A DNA stretch of 64,000 nucleotides from an uncultured Clostridium sp. (GCA_947653235.1 CANTGH010000004.1:2453-66452); one strand, 5' to 3'; shown: positions 1 through 24,672, counted from the stretch's first letter. Made by a program: numbers and translations. Notes: generated by a model from the sequence alone, not told the origin.

Positions 1-714
1 GTCTTTTCCTGGCTCATAACCTGCATGTTTAATCGCTTCTAAAATATACTTAAACGCTTCTTCTTCACTTTGCAAATCAGGTGCAAATCCTCCTTCGTCC
101 CCAACCGCTGTTGAATAGCCATTTACTTTCAAAATCTTCTTCAGTGCCTGATACACTTCCGCCCCCATTTGAATAGCTTGTTTGATATTTTGTGCACCAG
201 TTGGCATAATCATAAATTCCTGAATGTTGACATTGTTTCCTGCGTGCTTGCCACCATTTAAAATGTTCATCATCGGAATGGGTAGCATTTTAGCATTTAT
301 CCCACCAATATAATTGTACAATTGCAAGCCAAGCGATTCTGCGGCAGCCTTACAAACCGCCATCGAAACACCTAACGTGCTATTAGCGCCAAGTTTCGTT
401 TTGTTTTCTCCTGCCATGTTAATGAGTTCTTCATCAATTCGAATTTGATCATAGACATTCCTTCCTTCAATTTTTTTCGCGATTTTCTTATTGACATTAT
501 CTACTGCATTCAAAACACCTTTTCCATCAAAACGCTTTTCATCATTATCTCTTAACTCCAAAGCCTCAAAACTCCCTGTTGAAGCACCAGATGGAACAAT
601 TGCTTTTCCACAAAATCCACCTTCTGTCACCACTTCTACTTGGACCGTCGGATTTCCTCTCGAATCCAACACTTCCAAAGCCTTTACACTAACTATTTTT
701 AAACAATCTTTCAT
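1..714 (-). CDS. eno: Enolase, N-terminal ~238 aa; the gene runs off the window start.
   Basis: Minus-strand ATG at 712-714 with an AGGAGG RBS upstream. Translation reads [23 protein letters not shown]... and continues through ...[11 protein letters not shown], which is canonical enolase. Confidence 0.9.
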
Positions 715-813
715 ATTTACCTCCTAAAATCCTTTTGCCAAATAGTATTTCCAGAATTTAGAAACCTATGCAAAAAGCCTGCTATGTTTTACCACAACAG
801 ACTTTTTTCGTTC

Positions 814-1104
814 TTACCACCACAATTTTATCCAGATTACTCTGGCTTTGCGGTTAGCTGAAAGGTTTTCCACTTCATGTTCACCATTTCGACAAATGAT
901 GAACAAGTGCCGATTTTTGTTAAAATACACGTTCATTGAAAGCGTAAAATAAATCTCACAGTGTTTCATGCCATTTTTGTCATAATGTCCATGCTTTTCG
1001 ATTTTTGACCATGGATACAAAATTAAGCTTCCAAACTCCACTCTTCTCGTAGTTCGGTCGCAATTGCCCCGCTCCATGACCTGACTATTCAGACAATCCC
1101 TCAT
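814..1104 (-). CDS. Hypothetical small protein (96 aa).
   Basis: ORF with an AGGAGG RBS 7 nt upstream of the ATG. No recognisable family. Confidence 0.45.
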   Translation of the reverse strand: MRDCLNSQVMERGNCDRTTRRVEFGSLILYPWSKIEKHGHYDKNGMKHCEIYFTLSMNVYFNKNRHLFIICRNGEHEVENLSANRKARVIWIKLWW

Positions 1105-1207
1105 AGACTGGCCTCCTTTCTAAGTTTTGATAAATCCATTATACCATTTTTTATGTAAAATGTCAAATTTTCTCTTCTTTTCATATCCTATGAAAAAGGA
1201 GGTTTTT

Positions 1208-2245
1208 ATGAAAAAGATTTTTTGTTTGACACTTTTAGTCCTGACCCTTTTATCTCTTCCCCTTTCTTGTTTGGCTGCTAGCCATCCTGGAATGGATGTA
1301 AGCGATTGGCAGGGCTATATTGATTACACCCAAGTTAAAAATGCTGGCATTGAAATTGTCTATATTAAGGCAAGTCAAGGAAATTCTATTGTTGACAGCC
1401 ATTTTCGTACCAATTATGAAAATGCTAAAGCCAATGGGCTAAAAATTGGGTTATATCATTTTTTAACAGCCAGAAGCGTACCTGAAGCAGAACAACAAGC
1501 ACAATATTTTGCTTCCGTCATTTCTGGAACTTCGCCAGATTGCAAACTTGCGATGGATTTTGAAGTATTTGGAAATTTGACAGTGGAGGAAATTAACCAA
1601 ATCTCGCTTGCTTTTTTGCAAAAAGTGCAAGCTTTAACTGGCAAAGAAGTCATTGTTTACAGCGATGCTTCCAATGCCGCTAATACCTTTCAACGCCAAA
1701 TTGCCGATACGTATCCACTTTGGGTAGCCGAATATGGCGTTACTACACCCAAAACTGGTAATTGGGCTTCTTACGAAGGATTTCAATATAATGATCGAGG
1801 AACCGTACCAGGTATTCAAGGTTATGTGGATATGGATACCTTTACCGACAATATTTTTCTAACTTCTGGTGATACAATTGCAACACCTGAAAATACGACA
1901 AATAATGTCGAAACTTATACTGTGCAACCTGGAAATACCTTGAGCCAAATTGCCACTCAATATGGCACAACTGTTTCTGAAATTGCAGGTTTGAATGGTA
2001 TTTCAAACCCCAATTTGATTTACGTAGGTCAAGTATTGAAAATCGATACAACAAACGACATTTCTGTTGTAAACAGCGATAAATACGAAACCAACCATAT
2101 TGTTTACACCGTTCAAACTGGTGATACCTTAACTTCCATTTCACAAAAATACGATGTTCCGATTCGCTGTATTGTTCAATTGAACGACATTGCTAATCCG
2201 AATTTAATTTATGCAGGCGAGCGTTTACGCCTTGATTTAAACTAA
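1208..2245 (+). CDS. Secreted GH25 lysozyme/muramidase with two C-terminal LysM domains.
   Basis: RBS AAAAAGGAGG precedes ATG 1208. The N-terminus has a signal peptide. The core is GH25-like (DVSDWQG..., IVYIKASQG, GLYHF). Two LysM repeats are present (YTVQPGNTLSQIA... and YTVQTGDTLTSIS...). Confidence 0.85.
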   Translation: MKKIFCLTLLVLTLLSLPLSCLAASHPGMDVSDWQGYIDYTQVKNAGIEIVYIKASQGNSIVDSHFRTNYENAKANGLKIGLYHFLTARSVPEAEQQAQYFASVISGTSPDCKLAMDFEVFGNLTVEEINQISLAFLQKVQALTGKEVIVYSDASNAANTFQRQIADTYPLWVAEYGVTTPKTGNWASYEGFQYNDRGTVPGIQGYVDMDTFTDNIFLTSGDTIATPENTTNNVETYTVQPGNTLSQIATQYGTTVSEIAGLNGISNPNLIYVGQVLKIDTTNDISVVNSDKYETNHIVYTVQTGDTLTSISQKYDVPIRCIVQLNDIANPNLIYAGERLRLDLN

Positions 2246-2270
2246 ACTTTATAAGCAGGCAAATGCCTGC

Positions 2271-2774
2271 TTATATTTCTAATTTATTTCGAATAAAATC
2301 TCTAACATATTCCCAACGTTCTTCTATAAATTCTCCCTTTTCAACAAAAGTTTGCACTTCCTCATAAGTGACCCATTTTACATCACAAACTTCTTCTGGT
2401 TGCATAACGATGTCCTTTAAGTCTACTTCTTGTCTGACAAAATATTCATCTAGCCATACATTACCTGTTTTATAACACGTCATGAGTTGCAAATCTTGGA
2501 CATTTAGCGTAATCCCTAATTCTTCTTTTACTTCTCTTTCAATCGTTTGCAAACTGGTTTCTCCTTTTAGGTTGGAACCACCTGTCATAGCCCATACGTT
2601 TGGGGAATTTCTTTTGTTCCGCGAACGCTTTTGAATCAGAATTTCATTTTTCGCATTTACTATCCAAACATCCACCCCCAAATGATAATAGCCTTCTGGA
2701 AAAGGCGTTCCTCTTTCAAAGATTTTTCCTGTTTTATTTCCGTTTTCATCTAATAAATCCCATATTTCTCGCAT
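2271..2774 (-). CDS. NUDIX hydrolase.
   Basis: Nudix box GGSNLKGETSLQTIEREVKEELG. RBS AAAAGGAGG precedes the MREIWDLL start. Contains an in-frame CGG Arg codon at 2619-2621. Confidence 0.8.
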   Translation of the reverse strand: MREIWDLLDENGNKTGKIFERGTPFPEGYYHLGVDVWIVNAKNEILIQKRSRNKRNSPNVWAMTGGSNLKGETSLQTIEREVKEELGITLNVQDLQLMTCYKTGNVWLDEYFVRQEVDLKDIVMQPEEVCDVKWVTYEEVQTFVEKGEFIEERWEYVRDFIRNKLEI

Positions 2775-2876
2775 AATTTTTCCTCCTTTTATGTGAATTA
2801 TACTATAAAAAGTGGGATGGTGCAAGAAGCAAAAAATCTAAGCAAAAAGAACCTCTTACGAGGTTCTTTTTGCTTA

Positions 2877-3581
2877 TCAGAAGGCTCCTATAATAATAAT
2901 CTGTGAAGTATTTCGCAAAATGCAATCCATCATTTCATCACCATATTTCCAGAACGTCATCATAAATAATACTACTCTTTCATCATAAGAGAACGGTTCC
3001 ATGGTTTTAGTCGCTATCGTGGCAGCCTCTTGAATGGTCTTTTTGTATTTGCCATGCAAAAATTGAATCAGCTTTGCCCAATTGCAAACATATTCGACAA
3101 ATTCTGGATCACCCTGTTCTTCGACAATTTTTTCAAACTCCTGTCGAGATATTTCTGGTCTGAGCAAAAATTCCATTGAAGCAATAATGTCCTTCGCATT
3201 TTTGAGGTCATCCTCCAGTTGTTGCTGCTTTTTTCTTACCTCAAATCGATAGGCCTCTCTCCATTTTTCGCAGATTTCTTCAGAAGTGTCTTTTGTACTT
3301 ACCAAAACTTTCACTCCCTGAAGTTCGAACTCCACCGCTTTTACTTTTTCTCCTTCTTTCGGGAAAATAACTTCCAGCACTAGTGGAAAATTGGAACTCG
3401 GATGAAAACACCCTGCCAGCATACTGGCAAAATACTGCAAACAATTGGTTGTAGGTTCAATTTCCACAACACCTTCTTTAAAACCTTTTACAAACATTCT
3501 CTCAGTCAAGAAATTGTCTGTCCAGAAGATTTGCACTCCGTCTGATTTCCGTCTTTCTACCAATTTTACTTGTGTTATCAT
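2877..3581 (-). CDS. Hypothetical protein (234 aa).
   Basis: Long ORF with RBS AAAGGAGAAAAAAATATG. No family recognised. Confidence 0.55.
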   Translation of the reverse strand: MITQVKLVERRKSDGVQIFWTDNFLTERMFVKGFKEGVVEIEPTTNCLQYFASMLAGCFHPSSNFPLVLEVIFPKEGEKVKAVEFELQGVKVLVSTKDTSEEICEKWREAYRFEVRKKQQQLEDDLKNAKDIIASMEFLLRPEISRQEFEKIVEEQGDPEFVEYVCNWAKLIQFLHGKYKKTIQEAATIATKTMEPFSYDERVVLFMMTFWKYGDEMMDCILRNTSQIIIIGAF

Positions 3582-3682
3582 ATTTTTTTCTCCTTTGGTT
3601 TTTGCTAATTTTTTGGGATATTTTAATTGTATCATATTTTACATAAAATGTCAATCCTAATGTATAGAATTATGTATATCAT

Positions 3683-3714
3683 AAAACCCTCACAGAAAAT
3701 TTTGTGAGGGTTTT
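3683..3714. terminator. Bidirectional rho-independent terminator.
   Basis: Perfect inverted repeat AAAACCCTCACAG-aaaatt-TTGTGAGGGTTTT, flanked by T/A-rich sequence. Confidence 0.6.
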
Positions 3715-3858
3715 ATCATTCTTGATTATTTTTCATAATTTTACTAACGCAAATTTAACAAAACTAAGGCTTATAGCTCTTAATCTACTTTTATTATACC
3801 ATATTTTGCACAAAAAGTCAATATTTTATGTATGGTGCAGAAATTGACATTTTTAATA

Positions 3859-4608
3859 CTACTTCTTTTTCCAATTTAAAATTTGATTATTCGTCAATTC
3901 TCCATCTTCTTCTATTTCAATAATATCTTGCAACACTCTTTTTTTCCTAAAAATACGACTTTTTAATGTCTCTGTTGGTGTATCCTCTCTTTCAGACTGC
4001 GCTAATGCTTCTTCTACCGATAATGTTTTTTCAAAGTCGACAATGTTTCTTACTGGTTCAGAATACATCCCTTCTAAATAAGTATCTGTTTTGGGCAATT
4101 CATTTTGAGTTTCAAATTCTTGATAACGACGAATAATATTTCTATCTTTTCTTCCCAGTAGTCTCAAATTTGGTTTTAAATAAAGATAGCGCCAAATAAC
4201 ATGTCTTTCATAGGAATTAAATTGAGATTGGGTTAAATCCTCGTAATCATATTCGACTTTAAATTGAAAATTCTCAATGGAAATTGTCAAATTAGTCCAT
4301 TCTTTATGGTGTTTGCTTCTCCAAATTTGCCTTAATTTTTTTAAGATAGCATATAAATCAGCAATTAATTTGGCATATTCTTCTTCATCAATATTAAAGG
4401 CATTTGGTATTTCATAACAGTTCACTGGTTTTTTCTTAATAATTCCTTTGGGAAAATAGTAAAAATACATTTCTCCCATTGGTCTTTGGTTGGGCATATC
4501 TATCATAGAAGCATATAAATATACACTTTCCCATTTTTCTGGTATAATATAAAATAGTTTTTTTTGTATTTGTGCATAAATTTGTTTTTCTTCTGATAAG
4601 CTTACCAT
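3859..4608 (-). CDS. DUF600/YezG-like immunity-protein family N-domain with a C-terminal extension.
   Basis: Pattern IIPEKWESVYLYASMID...EMYFYY...EWTNLTISIENFQFKVEYDYEDL...YERHVIWRYLYL resembles DUF600 antitoxin/immunity proteins of LXG toxin systems. Confidence 0.55.
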   Translation of the reverse strand: MVSLSEEKQIYAQIQKKLFYIIPEKWESVYLYASMIDMPNQRPMGEMYFYYFPKGIIKKKPVNCYEIPNAFNIDEEEYAKLIADLYAILKKLRQIWRSKHHKEWTNLTISIENFQFKVEYDYEDLTQSQFNSYERHVIWRYLYLKPNLRLLGRKDRNIIRRYQEFETQNELPKTDTYLEGMYSEPVRNIVDFEKTLSVEEALAQSEREDTPTETLKSRIFRKKRVLQDIIEIEEDGELTNNQILNWKKK

Positions 4609-4628
4609 ATATTTCTCCTATGTTTATT

Positions 4629-6164
4629 TTACTTCTTCTCTAACAAACTTTCGCCAGTCATTTCTTCTGGTTTATCTAGTCCCATTAAATCAAGCATAGT
4701 TGGAGCTAGATCAGCTAATCTTCCTTCTTTGACTTTTCGATTTCCGATGCCAACAATCGCAAGTGGTACAGGATTGGTTGTGTGTGCTGTGTGAGGTTCA
4801 CCAGTTTTGTAATCAATCATTTGCTCTGCATTTCCATGATCAGCCGTAATCAGCAAGGTTCCATTTACACTTTCAACTGCTTCTACTACTTTACTAACAC
4901 ATTCATCAATGGTTTCTAAAGCTTTTGCCGCAGCTTCAATATTGCCAGTATGACCTACCATATCTGGATTTGCATAATTTAAAATAATGCAATCGTATTT
5001 TTTAGACTGGATGGCATCTACTACTTTTTCGGTTACCTCGTAAGCACTCATTTCTGGCTTTTTATCATAGGTTTCCACTTTTGGAGATGGCACTAAAATG
5101 CGGTCTTCTCCAGGATATTGTTTTTCTTCTCCACCATTAAAGAAAAAGGTCACATGGGCATATTTTTCTGTTTCTGCAATACGAAGTTGGGTCATGCCTT
5201 TTTGGCTGATATATTCTCCAAATGTATTGTGAATTTCATCTTTTCGAAAGGCAATTTCTACGTTTGGCATGGTTTCATCATAAGGTGTCATACACACAAA
5301 GAATGTGTTTATTTTTTCGCTTTTAAAACCATCAAAGTTTTGGTCAACAATGCTTCTGGTGATTTCTCTAGCACGATCTGGTCTAAAGTTGAAGAAAATG
5401 ATGGAATCGTTTTCTTCGATTTTAGCAATTGGTTCCCCACTTTTGTTGGTGATAACCGTTGGAAGTACAAATTCATCAAATACTTCTTTTTGATAAGATT
5501 CTTCAATGGCACTGGTTGCACTTGAGGCTTTTTCCCCTTCTCCACGCACCATAGCTTGATAAGCCTTTTCCACTCTTTCCCAACGTTTATCTCGATCCAT
5601 GGCATAAAATCTACCAGAAATTGTGGCAATTTCGCCAATGCCTTTTTCTTTCATTTTATTTTCTAATTCTGCAATATAGCCTTCTCCTGAAGCTGGTGGT
5701 GTATCACGACCATCTAAAAAGCAGTGTACATACACATTTTCAAAATCTTTTCGCTTTGCCATTTCAAGCAACCCAAATAAATGTCTGATATGACTATGAA
5801 CGCCACCATCTGACAACAATCCCATGATGTGTAATTTGGAATTATGTTTTTTGCAATTTTCAATGGCAGACACAAATTCTGGTTTGCTAAAAAAATCGCC
5901 ATCTTCAATGGATTTGGTGATTTTGGCCAAATCTTGATAAATAATTCTTCCTGCTCCAATATTGGTGTGACCCACTTCGGAATTTCCCATTTGTCCTTCT
6001 GGCAAACCAACATCGGCTCCACTTGTGTGAAGTACTGTGTTTGGGTTTTCGGTTAAGATTCGGTTTAGATTTGGAATATTGGCCATTTTGACAGCATTTC
6101 CTTCTTCTTTTTCATTCATTCCAAAACCATCTAATATCATTAGCATTGTTAATTTTTTGTCCAT
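4629..6164 (-). CDS. gpmI: 2,3-bisphosphoglycerate-independent phosphoglycerate mutase.
   Basis: Full-length iPGM (511 aa) with conserved blocks ([20 protein letters not shown]). Confidence 0.95.
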
Positions 6165-6200
6165 TTTTCTTACTCCTTTTTTTAACTTCCTTTTATTATC

Positions 6201-6950
6201 TTATTCAAAATTTACAATTTTTGCGAATTCCTCTGGTTTTAAACTTGCGCCTCCTACTAAGCCACCATCGATGTCTGACATAGAAAACAATTCTTTGGCA
6301 TTGGAAGATTTCACACTTCCGCCATATTGAATAATTACTTCGTCTGCAACTTCGGTTCCATAGTTTTGAGCAATTTCTTGACGAATTTGTTGTATGCTGG
6401 AATTAGCATCTTCGGATGTTGCCGTTTTTCCTGTGCCAATCGCCCAAATTGGCTCATAGGCTATGATTGTATTTTGGACTTGCTCTTTGGTTAATCCTGC
6501 TAACGCAAGTCGGGTTTGATTGGTAATGATTTCGGCTGTTTGACCAGCTTCTCTTTGTTCTAAAGTTTCACCAACACACACAATTGGTTTTAAATTATTT
6601 TCAAAAGCTGCTTTGATTTTTTGATTGACTGTTTGGTCAGTTTCTGCAAAATATTGTCTTCTTTCGGAATGTCCGATAATCACATATTGGACACCAATGG
6701 ATTGCAACATTTTCCCTGAAACTTCGCCTGTATAGGCTCCATTTTCTGCCCAATGCATATTTTGAGCACCAATTTTGATGTTGGTTCCTTGTGCACTATT
6801 TAGGCAATAGAATAAATCGGTGTAAGGCACACACAAAATCACTTCATGAGGCGTGTCTTTGACCAAATTTTCGAAAGTTTGAATGTATTCGATTGCTTCA
6901 TTAGGAAGCATATTCATTTTCCAGTTTCCTGCGATTACTTTTTTACGCAT
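6201..6950 (-). CDS. tpiA: Triosephosphate isomerase.
   Basis: MRKKVIAGNWKMN...IGHSERR...GGASLKPEEF. Confidence 0.95.
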   Translation of the reverse strand: MRKKVIAGNWKMNMLPNEAIEYIQTFENLVKDTPHEVILCVPYTDLFYCLNSAQGTNIKIGAQNMHWAENGAYTGEVSGKMLQSIGVQYVIIGHSERRQYFAETDQTVNQKIKAAFENNLKPIVCVGETLEQREAGQTAEIITNQTRLALAGLTKEQVQNTIIAYEPIWAIGTGKTATSEDANSSIQQIRQEIAQNYGTEVADEVIIQYGGSVKSSNAKELFSMSDIDGGLVGGASLKPEEFAKIVNFE

Positions 6951-7507
6951 TATTTTTCCTCCTTTTTTTTATTTTGTAATTCTTCAAGAATTTTATAAAA
7001 ATATTCTTGAAAAAAAATTTTTGTAAATTGTGTTTCGTATTTATCTTTATTTTTACATATTTCTTTCATTTCGTCAATTGTAAAATAACGAACTTCTGCA
7101 ACTTCGGTTTTTTGTAGAATAAATTCGTTCACTTCTAAATCCGTTTTCAATAAAAAGAGATTGTCAAACTTATGATTGATATGTTTTCCTCGACTTCGCA
7201 TTGTTTTTTCCACAGCAAGCAGTTTAAAATCCTCTTGGCTTAGATTTTTTATGCCCAATTCCTCTTCAGTTTCTCTTAATGCTGCTTGGCGTTCATTTTC
7301 TCCGCTAGTTACATGACCTGCTGTTAAACTCCACAAATTGGGAGCAACTTTTGTCATTCCTCTTTTTTGCAGTAACAACTGTCCTTTTGAATTTACTATA
7401 ATAACTGTAATTTCTCTATGCCATAATCCTTTTTGGTGCACTTCTTCTCTATCGCATATTTCACCTGTTAATTCGTTATTTTCATTAACAATATCGATTA
7501 ATTCCAT
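6950..7507 (-). CDS. NUDIX hydrolase.
   Basis: Nudix box GHVTSGENERQAALRETEEELG. RBS AAAGGGAGAAAAAATG. Its stop overlaps the tpiA start. Confidence 0.8.
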   Translation of the reverse strand: MELIDIVNENNELTGEICDREEVHQKGLWHREITVIIVNSKGQLLLQKRGMTKVAPNLWSLTAGHVTSGENERQAALRETEEELGIKNLSQEDFKLLAVEKTMRSRGKHINHKFDNLFLLKTDLEVNEFILQKTEVAEVRYFTIDEMKEICKNKDKYETQFTKIFFQEYFYKILEELQNKKKEEK

Positions 7508-7518
7508 TTTTTCTCCCT

Positions 7519-8016
7519 TTATTTTTCCAATATCTCTTTTACATCTGAAATCTTGCAAAGCTGTGCATTTTTATAGCGACTATCCCATGTTACTTCTTTT
7601 CCAAACCAATTGGGTGCCACAAACTGACTAGCCATTTCTTCGGTTGGAAATTCCACTTCCACATTCATAAATCCCTTTAGAAATCCGCCATATATATCTA
7701 GTTCAGCTACCAAACCGTTTTCAAGAGGAAGAAAATAGCGTTCTTTTTCAATCATTCTGCCATCAATTTTGGTTTTTAAATGTTGGTAGGCCTCTTCCGT
7801 TAATGGCAATTCCACCTCTTTGGAAATACTAGCCACATTTAATTTCGTTTTTTGTTTGAATTTATAACATAAAATATAGTCTTCTTCATATTTTCGAATG
7901 CGTAATGTTGGTGTTGCAACTGTGTTTAAATAGCCTTGCTCGATGCTTACTTTTTTGTAATTTTCTAAATTTTCTGGTAATTCTTTTATTAAAAATTTTT
8001 TTTCAATTTCGTTCAT
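7519..8016 (-). CDS. CYTH-domain (triphosphate tunnel metalloenzyme) protein.
   Basis: N-terminal EIEKKFLI motif and overall length are typical of CYTH/CyaB-ThTPase proteins. Confidence 0.75.
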   Translation of the reverse strand: MNEIEKKFLIKELPENLENYKKVSIEQGYLNTVATPTLRIRKYEEDYILCYKFKQKTKLNVASISKEVELPLTEEAYQHLKTKIDGRMIEKERYFLPLENGLVAELDIYGGFLKGFMNVEVEFPTEEMASQFVAPNWFGKEVTWDSRYKNAQLCKISDVKEILEK

Positions 8017-8569
8017 TTACATTCCCTTTATTTTGGACAATTTCCATTATTTTTTCATAAGATTTTCTTGTGTAATCATTGATTAAGAGTTGATCAAATT
8101 GTTTTTGTAAATCCAAATTTTGGTTGTATTCTTGAATGTGTTCTTTCATTTCTTGCCACCTTTTTTGGAAAATTTCTTCTGGTAAATTTCTTTTTTGCAA
8201 TTCTAATTTGGCTTGATTTATATCCTGTGGAAGAATATAAATGGAAAATAAGTTGGGAACCCATTTTTTGAGCTCATAAATGGTGGGATAATACACTTCT
8301 GTTACTTGATTTTCTAGTGCTTGTAAGTGTTCTGTTCGATAACCATAATGATTCCCCAAAAATTCAAAGTTCACTTGTGTAATGCCATCTTGTTTCATTT
8401 TTTCAAATTCTTTGTCGGTGACAAATTCTTTATCAATTCCAGCAATTTCTCCCTGCCTTTTTGGTCTTGTCGTCACAATTGGCAGGTTTTTGAAGCCTAA
8501 TTCCTGTACAATTCGATTTTTAAAAAACGATTTCCCAGCGCCAGTTACGCCGACTAATGCAATTAACAT
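8003..8569 (-). CDS. Guanylate-kinase-like P-loop kinase (paralog, not the housekeeping gmk).
   Basis: Walker A GVTGAGKS followed by a TTRPKRQGEIAGIDKEFV guanylate-kinase signature. Confidence 0.75.
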   Translation of the reverse strand: MLIALVGVTGAGKSFFKNRIVQELGFKNLPIVTTRPKRQGEIAGIDKEFVTDKEFEKMKQDGITQVNFEFLGNHYGYRTEHLQALENQVTEVYYPTIYELKKWVPNLFSIYILPQDINQAKLELQKRNLPEEIFQKRWQEMKEHIQEYNQNLDLQKQFDQLLINDYTRKSYEKIMEIVQNKGNVNERN

Positions 8570-9171
8570 TTTACTTTTTCTTCCTTTCTCTTTCTAGAAA
8601 ACATGTAATCTTTTAAATTTACAAATATGCTATCATATTGTGGTTTCAAAGCTTCTTCATATGGCATACGTGTCATACTATTTTGTATAAATCCTATCGT
8701 ATCGGTATAATCTAAAAAACCTTTGTTAATCGCTTCTTTATGATCTATTTTTATTTGCTCTATATCTCTTAGCATCAAAGCATACATGCTTACAATTGCT
8801 TTTAAAGGTTTTCGGTTTGTTTCATCTAAAAGAGTTGTGTAATCCACTTTAATTTTTCCTAAATAATGCAAGTTTCTTGAATCGTTTTCACCAATTGAAA
8901 CTTCTTCTCCTAATTCGCGTACCATCCCTTGAAGTGGAATTTCACCAGACCTTATATGACCAGAAACTAAATCCAATTTTCCTGGATCCAAAAAACGTTT
9001 TCCTCTTTTAGTAAATAAAATTTTCTTATTTTCACTATCTATTACGAAACACGAAGCACATTTTATCCATGGAATGTCTTTCTCTGCACATGTTAAATTA
9101 TAGTATTCTTTTTTGGATATTGTCCCTACTTTTTCTTCTTGTGCCGTAAATATATCTACCATTTCTACCAC
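8563..9171 (-). CDS. NUDIX hydrolase.
   Basis: Nudix box GHIRSGEIPLQGMVRELGEEV. Confidence 0.75.
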   Translation of the reverse strand: MVEMVDIFTAQEEKVGTISKKEYYNLTCAEKDIPWIKCASCFVIDSENKKILFTKRGKRFLDPGKLDLVSGHIRSGEIPLQGMVRELGEEVSIGENDSRNLHYLGKIKVDYTTLLDETNRKPLKAIVSMYALMLRDIEQIKIDHKEAINKGFLDYTDTIGFIQNSMTRMPYEEALKPQYDSIFVNLKDYMFSRKRKEEKVKC

Positions 9172-9269
9172 TTTTTATTCTCCCTTTCTGATTACCTTAA
9201 TATATTATCTTTGGTTTTCCCACTCTCTTTCGTAAACAATATTAAGAAAATAAAAATGAATTAACTTAA

Positions 9270-10454
9270 TTAAATATCTTGTAAAGCCTCAATCCCTGGT
9301 AATTTCTTTCCTTCTAGAAATTCTAGTGAAGCTCCTCCACCCGTTGAAATATGGGTGAATTTTTCAGCTAAACCAGCTTTTTCAACAGCTGCTGCAGAAT
9401 CTCCTCCACCAATGATTTTAACTGCATCTATCTCTGCCAATGTTTGTGCTATAGCATTGGTTCCAACTGCAAATTGCTCAAATTCAAACAAGCCAAGTGG
9501 TCCATTCCATACAACCGTTTTAGCATTTTTTAATTCTTGTGCATACATTTGAATGGTTTCTTCGCCAATATCAAATCCTTCCCAACCATCTGGTATTTCC
9601 GTGTATTTGACGGTTTTGCTCTCAGTATCTGCTGAAAATTCTTTTCCAATTTTGGTATCAACTGGTAGTAACAATTTTACCCCTTTGTCTTTGGCTTTTT
9701 GCATCAATTCTTGGGCTAAATCCAGTTTGTCTTCTTCGCAAATGGAAGTTCCTACATTGTACCCCATGGATTTGAAAAAAGTATATGCCATTGCTCCACC
9801 GATTAGCAAAGTGTCAACTTTTTCTAGCAAACTATTGATGACACCAATTTTATCAGAAACTTTTTTTCCACCTAAAATTGCAACAAATGGTCTTTCAGGA
9901 TTTTCTAAAGTAGTTCCTAAAAAGTTCAATTCTTTTTCAATTAGAAATCCAGATACAGCTGGCAAAAAGCTTGCAACACCTGTGGTTGAACTATGGGCTC
10001 TGTGTGCAGTCCCAAATGCATCGTTGACAAAAATTTCTGCTAAAGAAGCAAATTTTTTGGATAATTCTTCGTCGTTTTTCTCTTCACCTGGTTCAAAACG
10101 AACATTTTCAAGAAGCATGACTTCTCCTGCTTTTAACTCTTGCGCCAATTTTTGCGCATTCTCACCAACAACATCTTGGCTTAGTTTGACCTCTTGACCT
10201 AATAATTTAGAAAGTTCTTTGGCAACAATATCCATTGAAAATTCTGGCTTTACTTCTCCTTTTGGACGTCCTAAATGAGAACATAAAATCACTTTACAGC
10301 CTTTTTCGATTAAAGCTTGAATGGTTGGCAATGCAGCAACAATTCTTCGGTTGTCTGTGATGTTTCTGTTTTCGTCATATGGAACATTGAAATCACATCT
10401 GACTAATACTTTTTTGTTTTGGATATCAATGTCTTGGATTGTTTTTTTATTCAT
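9270..10454 (-). CDS. pgk: Phosphoglycerate kinase.
   Basis: Full-length PGK (394 aa) starting [25 protein letters not shown]. Confidence 0.95.
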
Positions 10455-10489
10455 ATTTCTTCTCCTTTATCTTAAAATGACATAAGGAC

Positions 10490-10511
10490 AGGGGTGGAAC
10501 CCTGCCCCTAC
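10490..10511. promoter_or_regulatory. GC-rich hairpin motif, copy A (AGGGGTGGAACCCTGCCCCTAC), in the gap-pgk intergenic region.
   Basis: A 22-nt motif with stem CAGGG/CCCTG, recurring at 36570-36591. It lies ~35 nt upstream of the pgk start codon. Confidence 0.4.
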
Positions 10512-10530
10512 ATGTTTTGTTTGGCACGTT

Positions 10531-22055: not shown

Positions 22056-23225
22056 CTATTTTGCTTCAAATCCAGCTTGCTCGATCGCTTCTTTTATTTT
22101 TTCATCGGCTATTTCCTTTGTCATTTCTAAAATGGCATTTTTATTTTCTAAATCAACTTCGACTTTCGTGACACCGTCAATTCCTCCTAATGCCTTTTCG
22201 ACAGTCATTTTGCAATGATTACATTGCATGCCTTCAATTTGGATTATTTTTTTCATGATTTTTTCCTCCTTTTTGGGTTGGTCAAAACCAACCTCTACGA
22301 TATTTTGTTTTTGAGGTAGTTGGCAGGATTGGAACTCTGCCTCTACGGATTGCTGAATGGGACATGTGGTATCATATGTTGGGAATTGAGGCTTGAATTT
22401 TCTTAATCGTAATGCATTGGTAACCACACATACGGAACTTAGACTCATGGTAGCTGCTCCAATCATAGGATTTAAAGTTAAAGCAAAACTTAGGTAAAAC
22501 ACGCCAGCTGCAATCGGTATACCAATGCAATTATAGAAAAATGCCCAAAATAAATTCGTTTTTATATTTCCTATGACTGCTTTGCTCAGATCAATAGCTG
22601 TTACAACATCTTGCAAATTATTTTTCATCAGTACAATATCGGCTGAATCAATTGCAATATCGGTTCCAGAACCGATTGCCAAGCCAATATCGGCTTGCAC
22701 CAAAGCGGGACTATCATTGATTCCATCTCCCACAAAAGCTACCTTTTTGCCTTGTTCTTGTAATTTCTCAACTTCTTTTGCTTTATCTTGTGGCAACACC
22801 TCTGAGACTACTTTATCAATCCCCAGTTTTTCCCCAATTGTACTTGCCACCACATGGTTGTCACCTGTTAGCATTACCACTTCAATCGCTTTTTCTTTTA
22901 ATTGTTGAATTGCCTCAAAACTGCTTTGCTTGATGGTATCTGCTACAGCAATCGCACCAATTATTGTTTCTTGATTCGCAAAATAAAGTACCGTTTTACC
23001 TTGTTCTAAAAATGCTTGTATTTTGCTTTCTAGTTGTGTCACAGAAATACCATTTTCTTTCATAAAAGCAATATTTCCACCAAAATAAGTCCTTCCTTCT
23101 ATTTTAGCTTTTACGCCTCTTCCAGAAATACTTTCAAATGCCTCTACTTTCAGCAACTCAATTTGATTTGCTTTTACCTTTTCCATAATTGCCTCTGCCA
23201 ACGGATGCTCCGAATTTTGTTCCAA
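22056..23225 (-). CDS. copA: Copper-translocating P-type ATPase, C-terminal fragment (nucleotide-binding domain, GDGINDSPAL hinge, extra C-terminal HMA domain).
   Basis: Continues copA after the frameshift at 23293-23295. Confidence 0.85.
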   Translation of the reverse strand: MEQNSEHPLAEAIMEKVKANQIELLKVEAFESISGRGVKAKIEGRTYFGGNIAFMKENGISVTQLESKIQAFLEQGKTVLYFANQETIIGAIAVADTIKQSSFEAIQQLKEKAIEVVMLTGDNHVVASTIGEKLGIDKVVSEVLPQDKAKEVEKLQEQGKKVAFVGDGINDSPALVQADIGLAIGSGTDIAIDSADIVLMKNNLQDVVTAIDLSKAVIGNIKTNLFWAFFYNCIGIPIAAGVFYLSFALTLNPMIGAATMSLSSVCVVTNALRLRKFKPQFPTYDTTCPIQQSVEAEFQSCQLPQKQNIVEVGFDQPKKEEKIMKKIIQIEGMQCNHCKMTVEKALGGIDGVTKVEVDLENKNAILEMTKEIADEKIKEAIEQAGFEAK

Positions 23226-23265
23226 ACTTCCTGCAATCTGCCATAACTTATTTTCTTCTATTTGG

Positions 23266-24672
23266 CTAACCGTATCTGTGACTTGTGGCTTTCCGTTTTG
23301 TAATTGTTCCTGTTTTGTCTAGAACAACCACATCTGACAAATGCAAATTTTCTAGACTTTGTGCAGATTTAATCAAAATTCCATTTTCGGCAGCCTTCCC
23401 TGTTCCAACCATAATGGCAACTGGTGTTGCTAGCCCTAACGCACAAGGACACGAAATCACCAAAACCGCAATTCCAATACGCATTGCAAATTCAAAACTC
23501 TGTCCTTGTAAAAGCCAAAAAACACAAGCCAAAAATGCAATAGCTATCACACACGGTACAAAAACACCGCTTACTTTATCTGCCAATCTTGCAATCGGTG
23601 CCTTTGAATTTCCTGCTTCTTCTACCAATTGGATGATTTGCGAAAGCGTCGTATCTTGCCCAATTTTCGTAGCACGCATTTTGAAGGAACCTCTTTGATT
23701 AATTGTCCCTGAAATAACGGTATCTCCAACTGTTTTTTCCACAGGCATACTTTCACCTGTTATGCTTGCTTGGTCAATCGCTGAAGCACCTTCTATTAAT
23801 ACCCCATCAACTGGAATAGCTCCACCTGGTTTCACTACGATAATATCATCTACTACAATTTCTTGAGTATCCACTTCTATTTCCTCATTGTTTCGCAAAA
23901 CGGTTGCTGTTTTGGGTGCTAAATTCATCAATTTGTAAATCGCATCTCCAGTTTTACCTTTCGATTTTTCCTCTAAATATTTGCCTACTGTAATCAAGGT
24001 CAAAATGGTCCCTGCCGATTCAAAATATAAATCCATTGAAAATTTCTCAACTAAATCTATCTTTCCATGTCCTAAACCATAACCAATTATAAATATTGCA
24101 TAAATTCCATAACCAATCGCGGCTAAGCTTCCAATCGCAATCAAAGAATCCATATTGGGTGCTCTTTTGATAAGTCTTTTCAAGCCAACGATAAAATAAT
24201 TTCGATTTACATACACAATTGGCAATACTAATAAAAACTGTGTAAAACCAAAGGCAATTGCATTTTCCACACCATGAAAAGCACTTTCTATAATAGCTGG
24301 AATTGGCAAACCAAACCATTCATAAAACATATGGTACATGGCAATATACATCAAAGGAACCCAAAATGCCATTGAAACAACAAGCTTTTTTTTCATTATT
24401 TTAAGTCTATCTTGCTTTTGGATTTGAGAATCTTTCAGACTTGTTTTCTTGGCTTGTATTCTCATAGCAGTAGCACCGTAGCCAGCTTCTATAACCGCTT
24501 TTATAATTTCATCTTCTGTTAATTTTCCTTCATTAAATTCGACAAACATACTATTAGACAACAAATTAACACTTACGTTTTGGATACCTTCTAATTTCTC
24601 AACTGCTTTTTCTACATGGGCTTGACAACTACTACATGTCATCCCCTGAATGGCAAATTTCACTTTTGGCAT
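23266..24672 (-). CDS. copA: Copper-translocating P-type ATPase, N-terminal fragment (HMA domain with GMTCSSC, TM region, CPC, DKTGT).
   Basis: Ends ...DKTGTITKRKATSHRYG*. Removing one C gives the canonical ...TGTITKGKPQVTDTVSQ..., which joins the downstream ORF. Confidence 0.85.
   Translation of the reverse strand: MPKVKFAIQGMTCSSCQAHVEKAVEKLEGIQNVSVNLLSNSMFVEFNEGKLTEDEIIKAVIEAGYGATAMRIQAKKTSLKDSQIQKQDRLKIMKKKLVVSMAFWVPLMYIAMYHMFYEWFGLPIPAIIESAFHGVENAIAFGFTQFLLVLPIVYVNRNYFIVGLKRLIKRAPNMDSLIAIGSLAAIGYGIYAIFIIGYGLGHGKIDLVEKFSMDLYFESAGTILTLITVGKYLEEKSKGKTGDAIYKLMNLAPKTATVLRNNEEIEVDTQEIVVDDIIVVKPGGAIPVDGVLIEGASAIDQASITGESMPVEKTVGDTVISGTINQRGSFKMRATKIGQDTTLSQIIQLVEEAGNSKAPIARLADKVSGVFVPCVIAIAFLACVFWLLQGQSFEFAMRIGIAVLVISCPCALGLATPVAIMVGTGKAAENGILIKSAQSLENLHLSDVVVLDKTGTITKRKATSHRYG

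Follow-up and report, generated by a model that had tools for sequence, protein, structure and literature searches.

What are two Nudix hydrolases, a guanylate-kinase-like protein and a CYTH-type triphosphate-tunnel enzyme doing between pgk and tpiA, in the middle of a glycolytic operon? The question is raised by a 64,000-nt stretch of DNA from an uncultured Clostridium sp. (the window), in which a block of four genes is inserted at this junction. We refer to these genes as Nudix-A, GKL (guanylate-kinase-like), CYTH and Nudix-B. We found the arrangement to be genuine, conserved and undescribed, and built from known enzyme superfamilies. The block and its immediate flanks read as follows, in the direction of transcription:

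9270..10454, minus strand: pgk, phosphoglycerate kinase (PF00162)
9172..9269, minus strand: spacer of 98 nt between pgk and Nudix-A, with a GGGAG ribosome-binding site
8563..9171, minus strand: Nudix-A, 202 amino acids (aa), a Nudix hydrolase of the IDI/YfcD-like branch (Pfam NUDIX, 1.6e-9)
8003..8569, minus strand: GKL, 188 aa, a P-loop kinase of the guanylate-kinase fold (PF00625, Guanylate_kin, 2.2e-14)
7519..8016, minus strand: CYTH, 165 aa, a NeuTTM-type triphosphate-tunnel enzyme and predicted inorganic triphosphatase (PDB match)
6950..7507, minus strand: Nudix-B, 185 aa, a YfcD-like Nudix hydrolase (Pfam NUDIX, 2.3e-19)
6201..6950, minus strand: tpiA, its start overlapping the stop of Nudix-B (TAATG)

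A first-pass annotation of the window had described four co-oriented, tightly packed genes at this junction and had named their families as two NUDIX hydrolases, a CYTH enzyme and a guanylate-kinase paralogue. The open reading frames (ORFs) bear out this layout, with all four on the minus strand and overlapping or abutting, and Pfam and PDB matches agree with every family assignment. Nudix-A and GKL overlap by 7 nt (ATGTTAA) and are translationally coupled; GKL and CYTH overlap by 14 nt, and an 11-nt gap separates CYTH from Nudix-B. A search of the coding strand within the block returned no terminator-like sites. The pgk/Nudix-A spacer likewise contained no terminator, and it folded no better than shuffled sequence (z-score −0.22). 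An Rfam search of window positions 1-12500 found no element, riboswitches included. The block is thus predicted to have the architecture of co-transcription with the glycolytic operon. We observed the identical block in independent assemblies of the window's species. Because of this recurrence, and because the Nudix-GKL pair is syntenic with intact frames in ~50 species-level genomes, the gene arrangement is well beyond chance.

To place the block among related genomes, we scanned one genome per species and annotated the loci with the window's proteins. This gave 57 loci, every one in a metagenome-assembled genome (MAG) of uncultured gut Clostridia; the samples came from humans, goats, rabbits and roe deer. 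The order gap-pgk-Nudix-GKL-tpiA-gpmI-YezG-like, with intact ORFs, was present in ~50 of the 57 species-level loci, so the co-occurrence of Nudix and GKL between pgk and tpiA is not random. CYTH was limited to the clade of the window (the window, L064/65, L007, L008 and L061); in L009 it lies between Nudix and GKL, a position unlike that in L008. Nudix-B was present in the window and L007 and, separately, in the distant L047. Three genomes had GKL without Nudix (L035, L063 and L055). Nudix without GKL was the state of a whole clade that is common in metagenomes (P0198, in 139 contigs, P0199 and P0205; loci L067-L073). No component is obligatory for the others, because this Nudix-only clade and the GKL-only genomes exist. 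The coupled pair also occurred away from glycolytic genes, in L052 and L053, and so does not always sit inside glycolytic operons.

In a neighbour-joining tree of concatenated Pgk, Tpi and GpmI, the Nudix-only clade was the sister of the window's clade. The GKL tree, rooted on the out-paralogues of L059 and L060, mirrored this housekeeping tree, with the GKLs of the window's clade nested well inside. The simplest history is an ancestral insertion of Nudix and GKL, after which CYTH was gained once and Nudix-B twice, and GKL was lost once and Nudix at least twice. By these comparisons the block is vertically inherited. Horizontal transfer was considered and rejected, since the GC content of the block is only slightly under that of the flanking genes and the gene trees agree with one another. 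Across the deepest split, identity was ~75% for Pgk, Tpi and GpmI, ~55% for GKL, ~45% for the YezG-like protein and ~31% for Nudix. The Nudix gene at the pgk-tpiA position belonged to at least three subtypes, those of L008, L009 and L023 differing from that of the window. In independent events, the only occupants of this slot were Nudix, GKL or CYTH.

The old core of the block is therefore Nudix plus GKL, and CYTH and Nudix-B are later additions of the window's clade. The first-pass annotation had proposed a four-gene module. The Nudix-GKL pair upholds that idea; a fixed four-gene unit does not exist, as CYTH and Nudix-B are recent and the parts separable. Its further statement that the arrangement is not a described system agrees with our literature search, which returned no paper combining a guanylate-kinase-like gene, a Nudix gene and an operon, or a Nudix gene with a pgk/tpiA glycolytic operon.

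We assessed whether GKL is a guanylate kinase (Gmk). The TTRPKRQGE motif reported earlier was confirmed. Against the Gmk equivalog model TIGR03263, GKL scored 74.7 bits (cut-off 160.45), and its relatives in L034 and L059 scored 78.6 and 69.1 bits. The predicted structure was of high quality (pLDDT 91.4) and resembled closed Gmk-GMP-ADP structures (TM score 0.85); the structure search returned Gmks only and gave no clue to the substrate. We aligned family members with proteins named guanylate kinase in NCBI and UniRef and with Listeria Gmk. K13, R35, R38, E41, Y75, R127 and R137 of GKL were kept in every aligned GKL and canonical sequence, and K13, R35, R38, Y75, R127 and R137 correspond to yeast Gmk K14, R38, R41, Y78, R135 and R146. 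By this alignment, the conserved residues represent the P-loop, the acceptor-phosphate clamp (two arginines and a tyrosine) and the lid arginines.

Five other columns gave a different picture. They hold S, Y, E, S/T and D in all named Gmks and I31, K47, V66, Y77 and Y93 in the window's GKL; across the GKL family they hold I/A/T, K, a hydrophobic residue, Y/F and H/Y/S. The equivalent residues of yeast Gmk (S34, Y50, E69, S80 and D100 in 1GKY) are presumably the contacts to GMP and guanine, the tyrosine helping to hold the phosphate. E69 of GKL was considered as the guanine-binding glutamate and rejected, as the alignment places V66 at that position. Because the catalytic and clamp residues are kept and the guanine-reading columns are replaced, GKL looks like an active kinase for a phosphomonoester other than GMP. 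A member of the GKL cluster (MEI3392800.1) is labelled "hypothetical protein" by PGAP. Together with the sub-cut-off score, the replaced GMP-recognition residues and the unusual context, this supports the earlier view that the kinase is not the housekeeping gmk, and on score and alignment GKL is not a Gmk equivalog. A search with the GKL profile for a second gmk in the 64-kb window and in ~1 Mb of related loci found none.

Compared with Gmk (yeast 1GKY, Listeria 3TAU), GKL shares the fold, the P-loop lysine, the lid arginines and the acceptor-phosphate clamp. It differs in the replacements S to I, Y to K, E to V, S/T to Y and D to H/Y, in a score half of the cut-off, in its coupling to a Nudix gene in a glycolytic operon, and in its loss by one clade. 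To our knowledge, PhnN is the only characterised bacterial enzyme on the guanylate-kinase fold that is not a Gmk. PhnN phosphorylates a phosphomonoester to the diphosphate, the same kind of reaction as is proposed for GKL, and the two are weakly similar (TIGR02322, 3.5e-7, 30.1 bits, below the cut-off of 156). GKL differs from PhnN in having a Gmk-type TTRxKRxxE motif and no phosphonate-operon context.

Both Nudix proteins look active, as judged from their motifs. The Nudix box of Nudix-A (GHIRSGEIPLQGMVRELGEEVSI) is intact apart from its final G, which is S, and that of Nudix-B (GHVTSGENERQAALRETEEELGI) fits GX5EX7REUXEEXGU perfectly. In the alignment of the family the box was invariant, and R56, D67, S70, H72, E77, R85, E86, E89 and E90 of Nudix-A were invariant positions. 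The mechanically called ORF of Nudix-B spans 6950-7558 from a TTG start. The ATG at 7507 is almost certainly the true start: an AGGGAG ribosome-binding site precedes it, and gene calls in other assemblies begin there.

The nearest relatives of both proteins lie in the YfcD/IDI-like branch. The model of Nudix-A (pLDDT 86.5) was nearest in the PDB to YfcD (2FKB), isopentenyl diphosphate (IPP) isomerases and DR_0079 (2O5F). The best sequence matches of Nudix-B were Escherichia coli YfcD (3.2e-19) and IPP isomerases. YfcD-type structures and the Nudix proteins of the block have an N-terminal beta extension in common. Both block proteins score under the equivalog cut-offs of this branch; Nudix-B reached 69.3 bits against the YfcD model (NF011922, cut-off 152) and 56.8 bits against the IDI models (NF002995, TIGR02150, cut-off 127). 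Both also have the hydrolase-type REx2EE box and not the isomerase-type RRAxEE box, as these are defined in PMC5389931. A reference given in that paper reports that DR_0079 prefers cytosine nucleoside di- and triphosphates. Including a third IDI-like gene and a MutT-like gene (33858-34292), the window has four Nudix genes in total.

The CYTH ORF had no Pfam match even at E<=10. Its assignment rests on PDB comparison because the Pfam CYTH model gave no match. The ORF matched NeuTTM NE1496 (PDB 2FBL/3TYP) at 1.1e-23 over residues 1-154, and the motifs EIEKK (ExExK), RIR, ERY, ELD and VEVEF are kept. NeuTTM is a specific inorganic triphosphatase (PPPase) in which a Tyr/Lys dyad has been proposed as catalytic (PMC3440374). 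The NeuTTM dyad, Y28 and K52, aligns with Y29 and K51 of the window's protein. CYTH keeps all catalytic residues of NeuTTM and looks active. ExExK, the dyad, and the tunnel arginine and acidic residues are common to both proteins; CYTH differs in its genomic setting and may have a less specific, CthTTM-like NTPase activity. The authors of the NeuTTM study suggest a possible role in metabolite proofreading (PMC3440374). CYTH also matched the phage family phrog_6660 (3.8e-28).

We then placed GKL within its wider family. An exhaustive profile search of a 50%-identity library gave 37 clusters at E<1e-30 and 574 clusters at E<1e-10, and a G(I/V)DKxF signature was common to many members. A sister subfamily is represented in L059 (7035-10200) and L060 (3289-9415) and by proteins P0249 and P0261; behind its kinase gene, the two loci have genes for an APH-type phosphotransferase and an HDIG hydrolase. 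In other organisms the sister-subfamily kinase is fused to the APH domain in proteins of 461-462 aa. An MIP channel lies immediately upstream of the kinase in L059; in L060 the channel is ~4 kb off, behind two large unrelated ORFs. The arrangement of sister kinase and APH protein suggests a two-step phosphorylation pathway for a hydroxyl compound.

Other relatives lie near mobile or defence genes. L074 and L075 have GKL, two conserved proteins, a methyltransferase and Nudix near IS66-type genes; the proteins at L074 6576-8263 and L075 3164-4851 (247-308 aa and 248 aa) had no match in Pfam, NCBIfam or PADLOC. In L076, GKL is accompanied by an HhH-GPD (base-excision) protein and a methyltransferase, with an integrase and Fic nearby. 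L077 (Logan contig from SRR8949166, 1-6552) has a sugar-type GFO/IDH/MocA oxidoreductase, a radical-SAM-Nudix fusion of 459 aa and GKL, all co-directional. A 1277-aa protein with TIR and formylglycine-generating-enzyme (FGE)/sulfatase-modifying domains runs in the same direction. The neighbours are a ParA/CbiA-FtsZ fusion, more TIR proteins and Thoeris ThsB (2.4e-83). The L077 island looks like an undescribed nucleotide-modifying defence candidate; its GKL relative is 35% identical over part of the length. Overall, the GKL family recurs beside IDI/YfcD-like Nudix genes, including those of L052/L053, L074/L075 and L077.

A pairing of this kind has analogies elsewhere. Phage T4 uses a dCTPase, then modification at the level of the nucleoside monophosphate (NMP), then a dNMP kinase, and eukaryotes pair viperin with CMPK2. 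By analogy, the block and these systems would share the pairing of a nucleoside tri- or diphosphate pyrophosphatase with an NMP-type kinase, and L077 adds radical-SAM to Nudix. The window's block differs in having no modifying enzyme and in being chromosomal, vertical and set among glycolytic genes.

The remaining features of the operon and its 3' flank are these:

11611..11639, minus strand: promoter-like site 5' of gap (TTGAAA-17-TAAAAT), a candidate operon promoter by consensus match only
10531..11547, minus strand: gap (GAPDH), the first gene of the operon (Gp_dh_N, Gp_dh_C)
4629..6164, minus strand: gpmI, cofactor-independent phosphoglycerate mutase
3859..4608, minus strand: YezG-like gene (PF04634, 1.4e-25), directly 3' of gpmI
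3681..3716: palindromic hairpin with a 16-bp stem, a candidate terminator; listed on the plus strand, its stem being self-complementary
2877-3635, minus strand: protein of 252 aa with a faint Tad4-like match (0.0028)
2271-2825, minus strand: third IDI/YfcD-like Nudix of the window (IDI model 3e-17, below cut-off)
1-714: eno

The canonical gap-pgk-tpiA-gpmI-eno operon had been read from this locus. The string from gap to gpmI stands, and eno does not lie directly 3' of gpmI; it is set apart by the YezG-like gene, the 252-aa gene, the third Nudix gene and an opposite-strand GH25 lysozyme gene. The YezG-like gene is probably the final gene of the transcription unit.

Several further features of this operon were observed. 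The YezG-like gene, of a polymorphic-toxin immunity family, lies directly 3' of gpmI in essentially every locus of the clade (L001-L073), and an immunity-type gene fixed in a housekeeping operon, upstream of eno, is odd. In several species, large genes have entered the spacer between gap and pgk (L025 3870-6080; L040 4531-6012; L035/L063, 4.2-6.7 kb; L072 1837-5628), and some of them have prepilin-like N-termini (GITLIALxITIIxLLILAG). Within this clade the glycolytic operon is broken at several junctions, of which only pgk-tpiA gathers Nudix, GKL and CYTH. The GAPDH of syntenic operons was of two types, with ~86-97% or ~51% identity to the window's, as compared with 70-90% for Pgk, Tpi and GpmI. 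Comparison of L004, L009, L034, L036, L047, L056 and L067 with the window, L007, L008 and L061 suggests that several lineages have exchanged gap for a divergent paralogue or xenologue. Elsewhere in the window, a SufB-like gene (34315-35716, minus strand) seems to be split into overlapping ORFs 34784-35716 and 34315-34884, and a heavy-metal P-type ATPase gene (22056-24672, minus strand) seems to be split into 23266-24672 and 22056-23225. Frameshifts, pseudogenes or errors of assembly could account for both.

What, then, might the block do? We favour, tentatively and at somewhat less than even confidence, a housekeeping role as a constitutively co-expressed cassette for clean-up and salvage of phosphoanhydride compounds, that is, nucleotide by-products. 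We infer that the four proteins are free-standing soluble enzymes whose targets are phosphoanhydride bonds in small metabolites resembling nucleotides. Nudix would trim a compound linked through two, three or four phosphates to a 5'-type monophosphate, and GKL would re-phosphorylate a non-GMP monophosphate to the diphosphate. CYTH would destroy inorganic triphosphate (PPPi) or take off a terminal gamma-phosphate. The place behind pgk would give constitutive expression in proportion to glycolytic flux. Single genes could be lost without the rest becoming useless, because each step would be useful alone. The slot is functionally coherent, since only phosphoanhydride enzymes are found there despite separate gains.

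The concrete form of this clean-up reading that we prefer concerns nucleoside 5'-tetraphosphates (p4N). Adenosine 5'-tetraphosphate (p4A) is a product of phosphoglycerate kinase acting on 1,3-bisphosphoglycerate and ATP, and its cleavage can yield AMP and PPPi (PMC7072326). At high glycolytic flux, the kinase would form p4N by-products from 1,3-bisphosphoglycerate and nucleoside triphosphates. Nudix could split p4N to NMP and PPPi, CYTH could split PPPi to PPi and phosphate, and the kinase could return the monophosphate to the diphosphate. Taken by itself, we still consider this particular scenario unlikely.

A number of points weigh against the clean-up reading. The substrate roles of all four proteins are predicted only, and YfcD, the nearest solved Nudix, is itself uncharacterised and has no assigned substrate. 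The p4N scenario gives GKL no necessary role, for AMP or for GMP, and the window encodes an adenylate kinase (16136-16798). The GKL pocket also appears unlike one for a standard base. A Nudix enzyme that yields a monophosphate beside a kinase that consumes one could form a futile cycle. The fast evolution and subtype replacement of Nudix fit relaxed or shifting specificity better than a fixed pathway step. Nudix and GKL can each occur without the other, as the Nudix-only and GKL-only genomes show, and the association with pgk may be no more than an accident of history, because the pair is also found away from glycolytic genes.

Other explanations have to be set beside this one. The block may be no functional unit at all, if a permissive, well-expressed pgk-tpiA slot gathered small housekeeping genes with unrelated house-cleaning jobs (MutT-like sanitation, a spare kinase, a PPPase) by chance. 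The mosaic of Nudix only, GKL only and combinations is consistent with this, as are the two further Nudix genes elsewhere in the window and the gains at other junctions (YezG-like, GGGtGRT and the third Nudix after gpmI; pilin-like genes between gap and pgk). We think such an accident improbable, however, because only three families of phosphoanhydride enzymes occupy the slot after several independent gains, Nudix and GKL are translationally coupled, and the two families adjoin in unrelated contexts. It is also doubtful, to a similar degree, that the pair is a monophosphate/diphosphate switch on a compound other than a nucleotide, setting the level of a regulator or precursor with glycolysis; phosphoribosyl pyrophosphate (PRPP)/ribose 1,5-bisphosphate and IPP/isopentenyl phosphate (IP) are the candidates. 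GKL keeps only the phosphate clamp of Gmk and has a hydrophobic base pocket, and its similarity to PhnN, the PRPP-forming ribose 1,5-bisphosphokinase, is weak but real. Among hydrolases, the Nudix partners are those most closely related to IPP isomerase, and the sister GKL with its APH-type kinase and HD hydrolase suggests stepwise phosphorylation. Some Nudix enzymes reportedly turn PRPP into ribose 1,5-bisphosphate, and plant pairs of Nudix and isopentenyl phosphate kinase set the IP/IPP ratio. Yet the PhnN score is far under its cut-off (30 vs 156) and also under the Gmk score, CYTH would have no role, and the distant GKLs with methyltransferases, HhH-GPD and radical-SAM-Nudix point to nucleotides. 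An alarmone unit, which the first-pass annotation had raised, would have Nudix trim (p)ppGpp or (p)ppApp to products of the pGpp/pGp type as NahA does, CYTH take the 5' gamma-phosphate of pppGpp and GKL re-phosphorylate pGpp, tying stringent signalling to glycolytic flux. All four activities would fit one substrate family, and K37 and K47 make the acceptor site of GKL more basic than that of Gmk, which would suit a highly charged acceptor. The GMP site of Gmk from Firmicutes also binds (p)ppGpp, the sequence matches of GKL included PDB 4QRH, and the Nudix enzyme NahA makes pGpp. None of our tests pointed specifically to alarmones, though, or to a conflict system, and we rate the alarmone unit as quite unlikely. 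GKL has lost all of the residues with which Gmk recognises guanine, which speaks against a guanine nucleotide, and positions 1-12500 hold no ppGpp or PRPP (ykkC-type) riboswitch or other Rfam element. Reading the window's ORF translations by eye revealed no RelA/SpoT-homologue (RSH) or small alarmone synthetase (SAS) gene, most of these ORFs having had no HMM search, and the library matches of the IDI/YfcD-like Nudix proteins included no alarmone-hydrolase family.

It is very unlikely that GKL serves the clade as its functional guanylate kinase, having relocated to the glycolytic operon and diverged there, with Nudix and CYTH as unrelated neighbours. Guanylate kinase is its best family match and Gmk its best structural match; it is the most conserved inserted gene (~55% vs ~31% for Nudix) and was kept in three genomes that lost Nudix, and no second gmk was found in the sequence searched. 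Against this, every member tested scored 69-79 bits where the trusted cut-off is 160, the five invariant Gmk positions are replaced, and PGAP gives no guanylate kinase name. A clade nested among GKL carriers has lost GKL, as a sole essential gmk could not be, and the family consists of accessory genes in mobile and defence contexts. Finally, a conflict system acting through the nucleotide pool had been suggested, and the block would then be a constitutively expressed immunity cassette that neutralises nucleotide-targeting toxins or phage-induced nucleotide changes, or that makes a modified nucleotide; the orphan YezG-like immunity gene invites the comparison. The GKL of L077 lies directly 3' of the radical-SAM-Nudix fusion, near the TIR-FGE-sulfatase gene and Thoeris ThsB, other relatives lie near integrase, insertion sequence and Fic genes, an immunity-family gene is conserved in the same operon, and CYTH and GKL both have phage-family counterparts. 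PADLOC 2.0 nevertheless recognised no defence system, with matches that were weak, generic or partial (PDC-S07 for both Nudix proteins; mad8, 4.9e-4, and Cas8f, 4.4e-3, for GKL; none for CYTH). Strictly vertical inheritance in the most conserved housekeeping operon, with deep divergence and no mobile-element scars, also speaks against such a cassette, as does the partial-length identity of only 35% to the defence-island relative, and we regard it as most unlikely. Nudix plus GKL could, as a long shot, be a mobile unit that makes or destroys a non-canonical nucleotide. It would serve a radical-SAM system in defence islands and would here have been domesticated with a triphosphatase, either as a constitutive shield that protects the nucleotide pool from nucleotides made by toxins or phages or as a source of a new nucleotide signal that reports flux.

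The most interesting element of the block is the uncharacterised GKL branch that accompanies IDI-like Nudix hydrolases. It represents a large unstudied branch of the guanylate-kinase fold, with its catalytic machinery intact and its substrate pocket rebuilt, that is repeatedly partnered with one Nudix branch. The position of the pair in the glycolytic operon makes its expression in every cell probable, in a widespread, uncultured group of human and animal gut Clostridia. Our data also caution against annotating GKL genes as gmk in metabolic reconstructions of gut MAGs. The substrate of GKL would give a function to hundreds of genes now called "hypothetical" or misnamed "guanylate kinase". It could possibly give NeuTTM-type triphosphatases a physiological source of triphosphate, and it would test the bacterial repair of phosphoglycerate kinase by-products.

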